DNA of 64,000 nt from Escherichia phage vB_EcoM_FB, in sequence record MT682711.1; one strand, 5' to 3'. Below the pieces are notes generated by a model. It saw only the letters and a program-made list of their open reading frames with translations, was not told the origin of the DNA and made no database searches. A program made the translations under genes and the position numbers. Shown one piece after another: positions 1,650 to 58,374 of this stretch (its first letter is position 1; each line of letters starts with the position of its first letter).

Positions 1650-2929
1650 TGTCTAAGATTGTAGACCTAATTAAAGAATCCACATTGACGGCTGCCAGCT
1701 CGGTTGGCCGTCCTGCTCTTCTTTCATACACCCAAGCAACTAATAAACGAATCTTTAAAGCCCTAGTTGCTGAACAAAAAACAAATCAACCGGTTGCTGC
1801 TCTGTATGGGGTACGTGTACTGAATCCTGACGACAAAATGACTTATCTTGGTGGAGCAACATTTGCGGGCCAGATTGGTATGACGGAACGTGAAAATATT
1901 CCAGAATTTACTGATTCATCTACAGCTTATGCGGTCGGTGATATGTTCCAGTTTGAAAGCGTAGTGTTTAAAGTTCTAGAAGCATCTCCTTTCGCCGGAA
2001 CCACAGAAACCAACCTCAGCGAAGTTATTTCTGAAGCAGTGGCAGCCGGCCATATCCGTATGGTGTCGGATGCTGCTATTACTTCTAAATTTGAACAAGG
2101 CCATCCTGAAATTGCTGAAACCGGATTCCGTATCGACAAATGGCAATCTGAAGTTAAATCACGTAAACTGAAAACTTCATTGACAGTCGAATTAGCCCAA
2201 GACCTAGAATCTAACGGGTTTAATGCTCCTAATTTCGTTGAAAATCTGCTAGGCATTCAAATGGCAGAAGAAATTAATAAGGATGTATTACAGTCATTAA
2301 TTACCGTGAGCTCTCGTTTTAAAGTCCAGGGTGTTTCTGAAAAGGGTGTATTAGACCTTACCAACCCTCGCTACGATAATGCCCAGGACCGTGCTCGCAC
2401 ATTATATTATTATATGTGTGAGATGAACTCTGCCGTCCAACGACAGACTTCTTTTGCCGGGACTTATGCAGTAGCTAGTTCTCGTTGTGCTGCTATTCTC
2501 GCCGCCTCTGGTTGGGTTGAGAAAAAGGAAGACCAGGACGAATTGGCTTATGGTATATTAAAGAATGGCCTACCACTTTATGCTGATATGAATAGTCTAT
2601 GTGATTATGTTATTGTTGGTGTAAATGCCCAGATGGGTGAAGGACAGACGGTCGCATCTTTATATTATGCGCCTTATACGGAAGGTTTGAATGTGGTTGA
2701 CGAAGAAGGTGATACTTCAGTTGGTGAATTTAAGGTTATTGTTGACCCGGAAAGCTTACAACCTACAGTAGCATTGCTTGCTCGTTATGCATTGACTGCA
2801 AACCCTTATACCGTCGCTAAGGACGATAAAGAAGCCCGCATTATTGATGGTTCTGATATGGACAAAATGGCTAATCAAAGTCAATTGAGTTCTTATCTCG
2901 GCGTAAAATTACCGCCTTTAGAAAAATAA
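1649..2929 (+). CDS. gp24-like paralog (second vertex/capsid-family protein)
   Basis: 426 aa, roughly half identical to the preceding ORF along its length (SRKLKTSLTVELAQDLESNGF); start overlaps upstream stop (TAATG). Confidence 0.85.
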   Translation: MSKIVDLIKESTLTAASSVGRPALLSYTQATNKRIFKALVAEQKTNQPVAALYGVRVLNPDDKMTYLGGATFAGQIGMTERENIPEFTDSSTAYAVGDMFQFESVVFKVLEASPFAGTTETNLSEVISEAVAAGHIRMVSDAAITSKFEQGHPEIAETGFRIDKWQSEVKSRKLKTSLTVELAQDLESNGFNAPNFVENLLGIQMAEEINKDVLQSLITVSSRFKVQGVSEKGVLDLTNPRYDNAQDRARTLYYYMCEMNSAVQRQTSFAGTYAVASSRCAAILAASGWVEKKEDQDELAYGILKNGLPLYADMNSLCDYVIVGVNAQMGEGQTVASLYYAPYTEGLNVVDEEGDTSVGEFKVIVDPESLQPTVALLARYALTANPYTVAKDDKEARIIDGSDMDKMANQSQLSSYLGVKLPPLEK

Positions 2930-2930
2930 A

Positions 2931-2948
2931 AGGGACCTTACGGTCCCT
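2931..2948. terminator. bidirectional hairpin between gp24 paralog (+) and rnlB (-)
   Basis: AGGGACC-ttac-GGTCCCT flanked by A and T runs. Confidence 0.6.
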
Positions 2949-2955
2949 TTATCGT

Positions 2956-3963
2956 TTATTTGGATACTAGTTCAACCCATACATGTCTTAATGTTTCTTT
3001 TACGCACTCAACGAGCTGCTTTTTAACTTCAACGGGATTTTCCGCATCAGTTAATTCCAATTCTTCACGGGCGGCTTCTTCAAGGATATCCTGGACTGTC
3101 AAGCCCATCACCTTTCCGAAATCCTTCGGCGATACTTCGCCAATCTTACTGATGACATTGTTAATGCGGTTAACAGTCACATAATCGGTGAATTGCCACA
3201 TCAAATCCATATCGTCTTGGGACAATACCACTGCAACTTTAATAGGCTTATCAGACTTTTTCTTCTCGCTGAATTTAGAGTTCTTACATTTAATCGCCAC
3301 ACGATTTCCGTTTGGAAGCCAGGTAGGAACATCAGGTTTCAATACAAAGCCTTCAGCCGTGAATACCTTACCTTCTACCTTAGGAATAAAATCGGTTGAG
3401 TTTGCAATAGTTAAGCCTGCGTTATCCACTGCAAAATTATAATCAGGAACAACTGAATCAAAATCATTAGGAAGTTTAATAAGGTCTTCAAAGCTACCAG
3501 TGGCCAGACATGGAGCTACCTTAAACTTATGGATAATACAGAAGGCTTCCATCAATGTATCGGTTAGAACAGATTCTGAGCCATCTTCTTTAGTAACTCG
3601 GATATCGAACACATAAAAGTCTTTATCGCCGTAGTCCACATTCTTCTGGATGCCTGTCCCAGCGAATTCGCCATAAATCTGGTATGACTGATAATTAATC
3701 GATTCAATTAGATGTTGAACTGATTTAATAGAATCAGCGTAGTTCTTAAGTACAATTTCATAACCATAGAAATCTTCAGCAGGGAGGATAGGGCCAGTGC
3801 GCTTGGCGCATGTGACTGCGTCACGTTCTATGATTAAACTAAAGTTGGTTCCATGAATCTTCTCACGTGCTACCCATTCACCACCAGTCAAACCGTTAGT
3901 ACGGAGTTTTTCGATAAACTTACTGTTGTAGTGGTTTTCGAGACTGCTATATTTCTTGAACAT
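2956..3963 (-). CDS. rnlB: RNA ligase 2
   Basis: 335 aa; [20 protein letters not shown] and [10 protein letters not shown] (KxHGxN adenylation motif) as in T4 Rnl2. Confidence 0.95.
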
Positions 3964-54851: not shown

Positions 54852-55505
54852 ATGGAACCAAAAGTAGGAATATCATTATCAGACCTACTTTTTGGACTTC
54901 TTGATAGAATTTTTAAAGATACTTCTTCCGGGAAAGTAGTTTTTTCCCGGGTCCTAGTCGTGATATTATTGTTCTTTATGGCATTGGTTTGGTATAAAGG
55001 CGAGTATATTCTAAACTTTTATAAAGAGACAACTTATGCCTCTTATACTGAAATGATTAGACAAGACCAGGACAATAGATTTAAAATTGCGGCTATCGAG
55101 CAGCTCCGAATAGTGCATTCTTCTTCAGGCGCAGACTTCACAGCAATATATTCTTTTAGACCAACCAACATGAATTATTTTGTGGATATGGTTGCTTACG
55201 AGGGTAAATTACCGGAAACGGTAGACGCAAAAAATACGGGAGGGTTTCCAATTGACAAAACGTCAGTAGAATATATGGCGGGAGTTAACGGGAACTATTT
55301 TGAATCAAGTACCGAAACTGTATTCCTTCCTACAAAGAAGAAAACACAATTCACGTATATGTTTTCATGCCCGTTTTTTAATTTGGATAACGTCTACTCC
55401 GGCTCGATATCGTTGTACTGGTATGATATCAAACCGGATTTAGGATTTCCTAGACTTTCGTCTATGTGCGGTCAAGCCGGAAGGACATTAGGTCGAACAC
55501 GTTAG
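54852..55505 (+). CDS. t: holin T
   Basis: 217 aa; single N-terminal TM (VVILLFFMALVWY) and large periplasmic domain; LSDLLFGLLDRIFKD as in T4 T. Confidence 0.9.
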   Translation: MEPKVGISLSDLLFGLLDRIFKDTSSGKVVFSRVLVVILLFFMALVWYKGEYILNFYKETTYASYTEMIRQDQDNRFKIAAIEQLRIVHSSSGADFTAIYSFRPTNMNYFVDMVAYEGKLPETVDAKNTGGFPIDKTSVEYMAGVNGNYFESSTETVFLPTKKKTQFTYMFSCPFFNLDNVYSGSISLYWYDIKPDLGFPRLSSMCGQAGRTLGRTR

Positions 55506-55777
55506 AAATTGGAGGTATACATCATTAAATAACGGTGTATATCTTCATATCCTTCATTAAATTGCTCAATAAGAGTGTCACGTTCATCTTCAGTTAAAGA
55601 CTTAAATAATTTGTTATAAGACAAACCATTAAGTTCCTTTCCATGTTCATTACGAATACCCAACTCATTCAAAAAGGCAATAAACTCATCACGACGTTGC
55701 ATGATGTCTTCACAATCCGTTTTAATCAAAATGGAAACAATAGTAGCAATTTCGGAAACAATTTCAATTTTAGTCAT
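55502..55777 (-). CDS. asiA: AsiA anti-sigma70 factor
   Basis: start re-set to ATG 55777 (91 aa); IVSILIK...FIAFLNE...LIEQFNEGYEDIHRYLMMY as in T4 AsiA. Confidence 0.85.
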   Translation of the reverse strand: MTKIEIVSEIATIVSILIKTDCEDIMQRRDEFIAFLNELGIRNEHGKELNGLSYNKLFKSLTEDERDTLIEQFNEGYEDIHRYLMMYTSNF

Positions 55778-55819: not shown

Positions 55820-55848
55820 ATACTAACATATCCTTAGGGATTGTAAAC
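55820..55848 (-). promoter_or_regulatory. early promoter (GTTTACA ... TAGTAT) for asiA
   Basis: early promoter consensus. Confidence 0.5.
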
Positions 55849-56081
55849 ATGTTCTTCGTTCTTTTTAACATATTCCTGATACATCTCTTCTATTGGTTCC
55901 TGGAACTTAAAATCAGCTCCCAGGAATTCCTCAAAGCACTCCTGCTCACGTGTACGCATGCCTGTTACGGTATTCTCTAAGTTATGACTCATAGCCTTTA
56001 CCCTTATGTTTCTGTTTACGTTTAGACTCTTTAAAGTTTTTCTTCTTATCCTTATGGACAGAAGCCTTATTGAAATCGTGC

Positions 56082-56363
56082 TTAGCTACCAGATTGTTCA
56101 CGTAATTTCCTTAATTGATATTCAAGAGAGCTGATAATTTCTTTATTAGTTGCAATATACATATCACGTAGGAACGGCTTCAACCCTTCCATATTACCAT
56201 GGATTGTCTTAGAACTAATATTCTTTATATATTCGTGGTCTAAGGCATCCCAAGCCGGTTGGTTGACATAAGTTCCCCAGTTGTCTTCCACCATGACATT
56301 AAGACGTTTAACATGATTAATATGGGCTTCGATTGCATCAATCTGGAGTTGTTTAAGATTCAT
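56082..56363 (-). CDS. hypothetical protein (93 aa; arn position)
   Basis: ORF; TAATG junction with upstream gene. Confidence 0.45.
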   Translation of the reverse strand: MNLKQLQIDAIEAHINHVKRLNVMVEDNWGTYVNQPAWDALDHEYIKNISSKTIHGNMEGLKPFLRDMYIATNKEIISSLEYQLRKLREQSGS

Positions 56364-56851
56364 TAGTAAAGGTCCTCAGAGTAAAGTTCTTTTTCACTGC
56401 CACCACGTTCAATACGAACTTGATTAGCATAAGTCGCAATAATCATTGCTTCTTCGCGAGTCCAATAGTTTGAATATTGGTCAATAAATCCTTGGTCATC
56501 ACCACAAACATGGTCTGATACAAGTTTATCACTTACCTGGTCGAGAACTTCAGCCATATCTTTAGAATAATGACGAGCGCCAGGAATAACCAGAGTCCCA
56601 CCGTCTTTTAACTTAAAGCGGTTGGCTGCGCACACAATCATGCGCTGATATTTTTCATTATTGTTCCAATGAGCGATTTGCCAACAGATTTCAGGAACCT
56701 CTTCTAAAACATCCTCTTCTGTATATTCGGTGTAATCACCATATGCCCGTAATTTAGCTGCTAGACTTTCAGGCGTCTCACGAGAAAGAGCTTTATCTAA
56801 TAAAGCCATACGGTCTTTAAAGGATAATGCTTTACCTTTTAATGGATTCAT
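56363..56851 (-). CDS. hypothetical protein (162 aa) with Cys/His-containing motifs
   Basis: IVCAANRF...[10 protein letters not shown]...[10 protein letters not shown]; no family recognised. Confidence 0.5.
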
Positions 56852-57195
56852 TTGAAAATCACCTTATGGCCGTTATCTTTAGCAAATTCTTGAATTTTGG
56901 TGGCAGTTTCAATTAACTCGCCTTTATAATAGGATGATAATTTAATATTAACTGTTTGGCCCTCGCCATACGAAGTTATATTTACCTTTTCAATAAAAAT
57001 AATCTCAAGAAATCGTAATAACTGCATACCAAATTCAAGATAAACGTTATCAATCTGGAGATCGAGTTGGTAAATTTTCTTAATACCGCTTACCAAAGCT
57101 ACACGCTCGTCCCAATCATTACGTTGTTCTTCAATCAATTTAAGGGAATGACCTTCACCGTCCCAGTTAAGTTCCATCGGAATCATTTGAACCAT
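56848..57195 (-). CDS. hypothetical protein (115 aa)
   Basis: ORF; ATGA junction. Confidence 0.45.
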
Positions 57196-57512
57196 CCTTT
57201 AATACGCTGCCATAAAGATTTCTGTTGAGCTTTATTAACACCAATTGAACGGATAACCGGTTGTGATTCTTGGTATTCTTTGTAGTCCGCTTTATAGACT
57301 TCATAAGCCGCTGGGACAAAGGTGCTGATTGCCGCCATAAAGTTTTTGCGAATTCCCATAGAAGCTTCAGAACCACCACGGATGATTAAGTATTTACCTG
57401 CTTTAATCTTAACAATAGTGCCGAGATAAGCACCGTGGTACCAAATGTCCCAACCTTCTTGAGTAGGTTCTGCACAACGACGAAGTTCATTAACAATATT
57501 AAGCTTGTTCAT
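57183..57512 (-). CDS. hypothetical protein (109 aa)
   Basis: TGAGGAAATT SD. Confidence 0.45.
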   Translation of the reverse strand: MNKLNIVNELRRCAEPTQEGWDIWYHGAYLGTIVKIKAGKYLIIRGGSEASMGIRKNFMAAISTFVPAAYEVYKADYKEYQESQPVIRSIGVNKAQQKSLWQRIKGWFK

Positions 57513-57530: not shown

Positions 57531-58163
57531 TTAAATTGCGTTGGTTACGGTTTTGATAACTTCAGATGATACATTTTGGAAGTCGATATAAGTATTCTTA
57601 CCACCAGTCTTAATCTTAACATCAAGATTCAAGGAAGTAAACACTTGTTTTTCTTTATCAGTCATATTATAACCGAAGATACGCATCATTCCGTCACGAC
57701 GGACTTCAATTTGACGAATACCATTGGTACGTTTGGCGAATCGAACTTCAAGGTTGCTACGGTTTTCAGCAATTTCACGAATCTCGATACGATCTTCTAA
57801 TAAAGCTTTAACTTCATCGGCCATGGTTACCATTTCAGGAGTAACACCACGTGAGCTACGTGTTTTACGTTTTTCCAACATCTCTGGAGCATTTTCAGAA
57901 GCGAACAGGTCGGCGGCTTTTTGAACTAGGTCCATTGCTTCACCCGTAGCCACTAAACCATCACCGGATTTTTCGATGAATCCTTTCTTAATCAATACAC
58001 CGATGTTAGAGTTAACTACCGCAGCACTAAATTGCTCACTCAGGGCTTCACGGACTTCGCCTGAAGTGATGAAGTTATGCTTGATGATATGTACTAAGAT
58101 CGAAGCAGTTTTTTCATTCAGGACGTCTTCAGAAGCTTTGATGATATAAGTAATTTTAGACAT
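57531..58163 (-). CDS. motA: MotA middle-transcription activator
   Basis: start re-set to ATG 58163; MSKITYIIKASEDVLNEKTASIL...VVNSNIGVLIKKGFIEKSGDGL as in T4 MotA. Confidence 0.9.
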   Translation of the reverse strand: MSKITYIIKASEDVLNEKTASILVHIIKHNFITSGEVREALSEQFSAAVVNSNIGVLIKKGFIEKSGDGLVATGEAMDLVQKAADLFASENAPEMLEKRKTRSSRGVTPEMVTMADEVKALLEDRIEIREIAENRSNLEVRFAKRTNGIRQIEVRRDGMMRIFGYNMTDKEKQVFTSLNLDVKIKTGGKNTYIDFQNVSSEVIKTVTNAI

Positions 58164-58201: not shown

Positions 58202-58230
58202 ATAGTATCATGTTTAAAGCAGAAGTAAAC
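58202..58230 (-). promoter_or_regulatory. early promoter (GTTTAC ... TACTAT) for motA
   Basis: early promoter consensus; MotA-box-like TGCTTTAAA overlaps. Confidence 0.5.
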
Positions 58231-58253
58231 ACTTTTTTCACTAAACCAAAAAA

Positions 58254-58269
58254 GGAACCCGAAGGTTCC
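58254..58269. terminator. hairpin between gene 52 side and motA
   Basis: GGAACC-cgaa-GGTTCC flanked by A6/T5. Confidence 0.65.
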
Positions 58270-58374
58270 TTACTTTTTAAAGTGAGCTGCTATTAAACCT
58301 ATAGCTAAGCCTGTCGCCAGGCCCAGAATAACAGCAAAGATACAGAGTAACAAGAACTCGACTCCAAGGCTCAT
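58270..58374 (-). CDS. small hydrophobic peptide (34 aa)
   Basis: MSLGVEFLLLCIFAVILGLATGLAIGLIAAHFKK; ATGA overlap with gene 52 stop. Confidence 0.35.
   Translation of the reverse strand: MSLGVEFLLLCIFAVILGLATGLAIGLIAAHFKK

Follow-up and report, generated by a model that had tools for sequence, protein, structure and literature searches.

Between motA and asiA of Escherichia phage vB_EcoM_FB (record MT682711.1), a block of four genes occupies positions 56082-57512 of the 64,000-nt stretch of DNA analyzed here, which is referred to as the window and to which all coordinates refer unless another record is named. A first-pass annotation made from the sequence alone had reported four tightly coupled open reading frames (ORFs) of 93, 162, 115 and 109 amino acids (aa) at the place where T4 carries its arn genes, and this description was confirmed in both respects, as the four ORFs are present on the minus strand and asiA and motA flank them. 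The genes of the block, the two parts of the 162-aa protein (Arn.3), which is the main subject of this analysis, and the flanking genes are as follows.

57183-57512, minus strand: arn.4 orthologue, 109 aa, full-length form (ORF list and BLASTP against T4).
56848-57195, minus strand: 115-aa lineage-specific gene between arn.4 and arn.3 (ORF list; phrog_14178).
56363-56851, minus strand: arn.3 orthologue, 162 aa (ORF list and BLASTP against T4).
56732-56827, minus strand: Arn.3 aa 9-40, two-helix module resembling the antitoxin CmdA (PADLOC, BLASTP, hhalign and AlphaFold2).
56366-56686, minus strand: Arn.3 aa ~56-162, T4_Y16D core domain (conserved residues).
56082-56363, minus strand: arn.2 orthologue, 93-aa type (ORF list and BLASTP against T4).
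57531-58163, minus strand: motA (50% identity to T4 MotA by BLASTP).
55502-55777: asiA, flanking the block on the arn.2 side.

The gene order is thus motA, arn.4, the 115-aa insert, arn.3, arn.2, two small ORFs and asiA, and the start and stop codons of the four ORFs of the block overlap by 1, 4 and 13 nt. The ratio of nonsynonymous to synonymous substitution (dN/dS) against JS98 was 0.02 for both arn.3 and arn.4 and 0.11 for the 115-aa gene, the value for arn.2 being invalid because a 1-aa indel upset the crude alignment. Given these low ratios, the four ORFs are real genes that are tightly coupled and kept by purifying selection. In the region of 55.4-58.4 kb, nucleotide identity was 98% with Shigella phage PSD9 and between 89% and 97% with Bp7, IME08 and JS98, by which the window is judged to be a Dhakavirus, a JS98/Bp7-like relative of the T-even phages.

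A BLASTP comparison with the T4 asiA-motA region indicated that three of the four ORFs are clear orthologues of T4 arn.2, arn.3 and arn.4. The 93-aa ORF matched Arn.2 with 38% identity over 98 aa (E = 3e-20), the 162-aa ORF matched Arn.3 with 74% identity (E = 2e-81) and the 109-aa ORF matched Arn.4 with 78% identity over aa 42-109, 68 aa being annotated in T4 (E = 2e-38); the 115-aa protein had no BLASTP match in the T4 arn region. The genes are in the same order and on the same strand as in T4, with arn.3 placed between arn.4 and arn.2 downstream of motA, and the GenBank records of Bp7 and JS98 already name them arn.2, arn.3 and arn.4. The window differs from T4 in that an additional gene, of 115 aa, separates arn.4 from arn.3 and that arn and arn.1 are both missing, no homologue of either being found anywhere in the 64 kb; their place is filled by a 39-aa DUF7230 ORF and a 52-aa AsiA.1-like ORF, which match phrog_1359 and phrog_5245. 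The PHROG families of all four block proteins (arn.4, phrog_1594, E = 2e-54; the 115-aa gene, phrog_14178, E = 4e-68; arn.3, phrog_839; arn.2, phrog_1844, E = 1e-40) are of unknown function, and homologues of Arn.3 (93% identical) and of Arn.4 carry Pfam PF26092, which is T4_Y16D (UniProt Y16D; a precomputed hit), and PF26821, respectively. Apart from the CmdA match described below, scans of the four proteins against Pfam, NCBIfam and PADLOC gave nothing significant, and searches of PDB sequences and profiles found no relative of Arn.2, Arn.3, Arn.4 or the 115-aa protein. The statement in the first-pass annotation that none of the four resembles anything is thus incorrect. T4 arn.2, arn.3 and arn.4 are themselves without a known function, and therefore its suggestion of an undescribed function stands, although the proteins are not unrecognized ones. 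In a recent study of T2, the functions of arn.1 to arn.4 are stated as unknown and "conceivably" counter-defence (bioRxiv 10.64898/2026.06.19.733364, June 2026), so that the roles of arn.2, arn.3 and arn.4 are a recognized gap for the phage family that has been studied best.

Arn, the anti-McrBC DNA mimic of T4 that gives the locus its name, is encoded in the same operon in T4 and T2, but none of the four block proteins is homologous to it, and neither BLASTP nor tblastn with T4 Arn gave a match to these proteins or to the window. As arn itself is missing from the window, a link of the block to McrBC is weak. The label "anti-restriction nuclease" on arn.2, arn.3 and arn.4 homologues in GenBank and UniRef was carried over from the locus name and does not reflect homology to Arn.

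The genes arn.2, arn.3 and arn.4 are already catalogued, and what is new is the CmdA-like module in Arn.3. CmdA is the labile antitoxin of CmdTAC (PD-T4-9), a defence system in which CmdT is an mRNA ADP-ribosyltransferase toxin and CmdC is a SecB-like chaperone (PMC9519451, PMC11618068). Arn.3 aa 9-40 matched positions 2-33 of the 77 positions of the PADLOC profile PD-T4-9_B with an E-value of 2.3e-9. In the reverse test, a profile made from Arn.3 N-termini alone retrieved from 5.8 billion proteins, at E-values of about 2e-8, proteins of 77-81 aa that end in ...LAA or ...QAA. One of them, P0134, is encoded in a P2-like prophage between replication and portal genes, and its neighbours are a 193-aa protein that matches PD-T4-9_A (E = 2e-90) and a 129-aa protein that matches PD-T4-9_C (E = 2e-56), and therefore the three constitute a complete CmdTAC operon. 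In BLASTP comparisons with CmdA proteins that are in complete CmdTAC operons or are full matches to the model, Arn.3 was 69% identical over 29 aa and 63% identical over 32 aa, and hhalign gave a probability of 98.2% (E = 4e-14) over 33 columns. The AlphaFold2 model of Arn.3, with a mean predicted local distance difference test (pLDDT) score of 87, has helices at residues 11-23 and 27-36, a low-confidence linker and a compact alpha/beta domain with pLDDT >90. Taken together, these comparisons make it almost certain that the homology of Arn.3 aa 9-40 to the two N-terminal helices of CmdA is genuine.

Arn.3 shares exactly the folded half of CmdA, and a stable domain, the globular T4_Y16D domain, replaces the long, unstructured chaperone-addiction (ChAD) tail and the degron. 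The match ends at profile position 33 and the remainder of Arn.3 is folded (pLDDT >90), with no ChAD tail found in it, and the protein ends in ...YSEDLY, without the C-terminal LAA/AA degron by which ClpXP recognizes CmdA. There is no adjacent CmdT or CmdC either, as the other three block proteins match no CmdTAC component in PADLOC, and no CmdT homologue was found in T-even phages, the only one among 50,697 phage records being in a 35-kb Vibrio phage. Unlike CmdA, moreover, Arn.3 is encoded by a virulent phage, and the CmdA-like module in it is an orphan.

Unrelated virulent phages without CmdT were also found to have the CmdA-like module, either by itself or joined to other tails. A 51-aa ORF in large, uncharacterised phage contigs (L007, 4001-4156) and a 75-aa ORF in a 47-kb siphovirus (L011, 1106-1333) are examples, and others are in ~49-kb Klebsiella phages, Acinetobacter phage LAPP1 and Vibrio jumbo phages; that of Vibrio phage VS2 aligns with 74 of the 77 CmdA residues. 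Published surveys log such phage matches as "a component of the PD-T4-9 defence system", without an anti-defence reading. Among 17 T-even Arn.3 proteins, 17 of 30 sites were variable in the module, compared with 16 of 70 in the core, and the mean pairwise identity was 73% in the module and 93% in the core. The module in the window is a different allele from that of T4 (50% identical), and the cores of the two proteins are 85% identical. This variability is what an allele-specific interface would look like. A 203-aa Arn.3 variant (P0001, on a 170.6-kb contig) was also found to have tandem CmdA-like modules, one of the window type followed by a T4-like one, before a single core.

During infection, newly made capsid protein titrates CmdC, CmdA is consequently degraded by ClpXP, and the infection by the T-even phage is aborted (PMC9519451, PMC11618068). 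The folding and accumulation of CmdT also need CmdA, and the folded part of CmdA is presumed, from a structural model, to bind the toxin. Building on the observed homology, domain architecture, orphan status and variability of the module, we tentatively propose, as the most likely of the readings considered here but one with less than even odds, that Arn.3 could be an orphan-antitoxin-like counter-defence protein directed against CmdT-type mRNA ADP-ribosyltransferases. Arn.3 would be made early or in the middle period of infection, and its CmdA-like hairpin would bind toxins of the CmdT family. Not being degradable via CmdC and ClpXP, Arn.3 would keep the toxin neutralised after the capsid-triggered loss of CmdA, and abortive infection would be prevented as a result. 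The hairpin would be the fast-evolving, allele-specific part of the protein, and the T4_Y16D domain would be a constant scaffold or an enzymatic or ligand-binding effector. Toxin binding, neutralisation and allele specificity are what we infer from the sequences. The CmdA-like module thus turns a counter-defence guess for arn.3 into a specific hypothesis, and the idea of an undescribed anti-defence locus that had been put forward for the block is retained in that form, resting on this module and not on the Cys/His argument originally made for it, which is dealt with below.

Orphan antitoxins have a precedent in T4-like phages (PMC11825919), where phage NADAR proteins and AdfA/AdfB act against DarTG1. 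The concept is the same, namely a toxin-less protein, antitoxin-derived or toxin-binding, that counteracts an ADP-ribosyltransferase toxin, and for the DarT inhibitors an allele-specific matching to toxin variants is documented (PMC11825919). These counter-defences differ from Arn.3 in that DarT modifies DNA, the NADAR proteins reverse the modification enzymatically and the protein families are other ones, and the interaction of Arn.3 with CmdT is putative. If the proposal is true, Arn.3 would be the first inhibitor that a phage naturally encodes against a toxin-antitoxin-chaperone system, and it would provide the first functional foothold for the widespread T4_Y16D domain. A bolder version, which we regard as unlikely, would make Arn.3 a modular weapon against toxin-antitoxin systems, in which the captured, fast-evolving CmdA hairpin steers T4_Y16D, a domain with a fold not seen before, onto toxins of the CmdT family and either the toxin is blocked or its RNA ADP-ribosylation is undone; the alleles of the hairpin would match CmdT variants, which would explain the escape of phages Bas35 and Bas38 from the ECOR22 system, and the arn operon would be a multi-target counter-defence island.

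To relate Arn.3 to natural variation in CmdTAC sensitivity, we compared arn.3 across 12 phages of the BASEL collection and T2, T4 and T6. CmdTAC restricts the Tevenvirinae of this collection and T2, T4 and T6 by 2.8 to 6.3 logs, except for Bas35, with an efficiency of plating (EOP) of 0.85, and Bas38, with an EOP of 0.32. This escape was left unexplained in the CmdTAC Nature paper, and the module is a candidate explanation for it. The T4-type module (FINRLKMLNVPLS...), which is identical to CmdA at 10-11 of 29 positions, is present in 11 phages, and all 11 are restricted. The other alleles are identical to CmdA at 15 (Bas35), 14 (Bas38), 18 (Bas36) and 15-16 (Bas46) of the 29 positions. Both escapers thus carry modules that are not of the T4 type, amounting to two of four phages compared with none of 11 (one-sided Fisher p = 0.057; 15 phages), and this association is suggestive at best as support for a counter-defence role of Arn.3. 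A simple rule that a more CmdA-like module brings more escape is contradicted by Bas36.

Several observations weigh against the counter-defence proposal. Bas36, which has the most CmdA-like module among the BASEL phages, is fully restricted (EOP 5e-6), as is Bas46 (EOP 3e-5), and T2, T4 and T6 are restricted by 4-5 logs, even though all of these phages encode Arn.3. No Dhakavirus is among the phages plated on CmdTAC. T4 escape mutants map to alt.-3, which acquires a C-terminal extension, and not to arn.3, and the hairpin of CmdA is taken as the toxin-binding surface from a published AlphaFold model, not from a solved complex. Furthermore, the T4_Y16D domain is widespread in phages without the CmdA module, with quite different N-termini or none, and therefore Arn.3 may have a primary function that has nothing to do with CmdT. 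The restriction of phages that encode Arn.3, the route of T4 escape and the varied N-termini would all suit the main rival explanation, in which the block consists of ordinary conserved T-even accessory genes and the resemblance to CmdA has no counter-defence meaning. The hairpin would then be a portable folding or dimerisation module, recombined in either direction between the defence operon of a P2 prophage and phages, and Arn.3 would act via T4_Y16D on another host or phage target. We consider this explanation only slightly less likely than the counter-defence proposal. Against it stands the identity of 63-69% over about 30 aa, which is difficult to regard as functionally neutral when the matching part of CmdA is its only folded one. 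The explanation also leaves aside that CmdTAC specifically restricts the phage group that encodes Arn.3, and that the module is the hypervariable part of Arn.3 and is an orphan in unrelated virulent phages without CmdT. If the counter-defence proposal were refuted, the locus would be one of ordinary, already catalogued T-even accessory genes.

With regard to the two escapers, an extended alt.-3 was rejected as the cause, as the gene is 96 aa long in both and identical to that of T4 in Bas35 and to that of the restricted Bas36 in Bas38; alt.-3 is not extended in them, and therefore the laboratory escape route is not the cause.

The core of Arn.3 comprises about 90 residues and is common to about 230 homologue clusters, in which the N-termini are CmdA-like, have a "MIPMELDWDG..." leader, are of other types or are missing altogether. 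Residues V73, A75, A76, R93, H94, G121, F122, D124, R132, A139, Q144, L156, S158, E159 and L161 are invariant, and the C-terminus is ...SE(D/N)LY in nearly all members, the ...YSEDLY end being kept in 40 of 41 aligned homologues and extended by a single residue in the remaining one. The first-pass annotation had pointed to conserved-looking Cys/His motifs in this protein, but a Cys/His metal site was rejected on examination of the 41 homologues, as C74 is often Ser, the Cys and His positions of "DHVCGDD" are free to vary and H94 alone is invariant. The set of conserved polar residues points, as far as conservation can, to a binding or active site. A further possibility, which overlaps with the counter-defence proposal but places the activity in the core, is that T4_Y16D is itself an effector acting on NAD+, ADP-ribose, ADP-ribosylated RNA or another nucleotide and that the N-terminal modules only deliver it. 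The invariant polar set (R93 H94, Q120 G121 F122 D124, R132, Q144, S158 E159) with the strict SEDLY end and the occurrence of many different N-terminal modules on the same core would fit such a role, as would Foldseek searches of BFVD, in which the core fold recurs in many phage proteins and also matches weakly, at E-values of about 1e-3 to 1e-2, domains inside three proteins named "large polyvalent protein associated domain" (LPD). The core, however, resembles neither macro, NADAR, ARH nor any other solved fold and matches nothing in Pfam or NCBIfam, and a catalytic role is pure conjecture, so that we regard this possibility as quite improbable. Specifically, Foldseek of Arn.3 against the PDB gave a best E-value of 0.09, the Arn.3 profile found no solved relative among PDB sequences, and the Pfam LPD families gave no match to the 41 family members. 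A relationship of the core to CmdT was also rejected, the hhalign probability being 0.1%.

It is very unlikely that the CmdA-like hairpin chaperones or restrains the phage's own ADP-ribosyltransferases (Alt, ModA and ModB) as CmdA does CmdT, since, although the dependence of CmdT folding on CmdA, the presence of several such enzymes in T-even phages (Alt and Alt2 are annotated) and the early co-expression of arn.3 would agree with it, the phage enzymes belong to the R-S-E clade, which is other than the H-Y-E/D/Q clade of CmdT, no CmdT-like sequence is detectable in T-even genomes, and arn.3 has no positional link with alt or mod genes.

The following features of the surroundings of the block were recorded, the two small ORFs included.

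58252-58271: hairpin rich in G+C and terminator-like on either strand, located upstream of the motA promoter.
58202-58230, minus strand: T4-early-type promoter-like site, GTTTAC-17 nt-TACTAT (sequence reading; predicted).
55982-56101, minus strand: 39-aa DUF7230 ORF, GTG start, overlapping the end of arn.2 (Pfam DUF7230, E = 6e-13).
55834-55992, minus strand: 52-aa AsiA.1-like ORF (weak BLASTP match to T4 AsiA.1).

The site at 58202-58230 was called early-type by comparison with the consensus of T4 early promoters. The block had been described as bracketed by early promoter and hairpin cassettes; this promoter and this hairpin do exist, but both lie upstream of motA and not of the block, and therefore the bracket encloses motA plus the block and not the block alone. 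Promoter-like sites also precede asiA. The stop codon of motA (57531) and the start codon of arn.4 (57512) are 18 nt apart, and no terminator-like site was found on the block's own strand within the block or between motA and the block. On this arrangement, the block is probably co-transcribed with motA. A canonical MotA-box middle promoter inside the block was considered and rejected, the matches being non-canonical only.

In T2, arn.4-arn.3-arn.2-arn.1-arn form one early-middle transcript, which is stabilised by pairing of the host small RNA ArcZ at the 3' end of arn.2 (10.64898/2026.06.19.733364). This early-middle timing agrees with that proposed for Arn.3. In T4 and Bas35, arn.2 has the ArcZ pairing site, GCCAGGGAAA (complementary to ArcZ 5'-UUUCCCUGG), at its 3' end. 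The site is missing from the corresponding end in the window (56082-56110), JS98, Bas38, Bas42 and Bas46, all of which have arn.2 of the 93-aa type. The ArcZ/RNase E control described for T2 arn.2 was thus rejected for the window, which differs from T4 in this respect, the pairing site being absent. As the site is missing from phages with the 93-aa type of arn.2, the proposed control is therefore not universal.

The other three proteins of the block are likely to be co-expressed accessory or counter-defence factors. Arn.2 is confined to only about six clusters among 1.8 billion representatives by exhaustive phmmer search. A relationship of Arn.2 to the RaiA/HPF ribosome hibernation factors was rejected, as the E-values of 0.06-0.97 were not significant and the family-profile match, which was limited to the last 25 residues, or one helix, and was given by one of 12 members, is a chance similarity.

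The 115-aa protein had no informative match in Pfam, PHROG, NCBIfam, PADLOC or PDB searches. By tblastn, it was found full-length in 47 phage records, and the full-length matches listed are all Dhakavirus or SP18/VR-type (Gaprivervirus-like). Its gene is, as judged by this distribution, a lineage-specific insert of Dhakavirus and Gaprivervirus among the matches listed. In Serratia X20-like, Klebsiella Marfa and Erwinia Virsaitis27 phages, Arn.3 has an N-terminal leader that is the same as the first ~20 aa of the 115-aa protein. The arn.3/arn.4 junction (57130-57195 in the window) contains the 115-aa gene in the window and an unrelated 51-aa ORF in Bas35 (L019, 4841-4996), and it is empty in T4. 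The contents of the junction vary and the leader is shared, and therefore the junction is a mosaic point of recombination and insertion.

Arn.4 belongs to a narrow family of 48 homologue clusters, all of which are at least 63% identical and 107-114 aa long, with the invariant stretch C13-E15-T17-GWD-W-HGAYLG; its AlphaFold2 model is poor (pLDDT 62). The gene in the window encodes the full 109-aa form, whereas arn.4 of the T4 reference (L004, NC_000866, ~2835-2960, minus strand) is annotated as 68 aa, with ATA where other T-even phages have ATG. In T4, the 41 codons upstream remain intact and in frame, and the T2 record also annotates the short form. T4 arn.4 thus has either a non-canonical start codon or a truncated protein product. 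T4 Arn.3 (L004, 2173-2631) also reads GQVSIERG-SEKEL near its C-terminus, with one substitution and a one-residue deletion compared with T2, T6 and all BASEL alleles. Taken with the lost ATG of arn.4, this change hints that the arn operon has decayed somewhat in the laboratory lineage of T4.

Two minor observations were made around motA. A 34-aa hydrophobic ORF (MSLGVEFLLLCIFAVILGLATGLAIGLIAAHFKK) at 58270-58374 on the minus strand takes the position of T4 motA.1, with gene 52 on one side and the hairpin on the other, and has a weak similarity to T4 MotA.1 (E = 0.28). The motA gene of Bp7 (L001, 2627-3261) is annotated as two coding sequences of 141 and 69 aa, whereas motA of the window is intact; the split annotation points to a frameshift or to a sequencing error in the Bp7 record.

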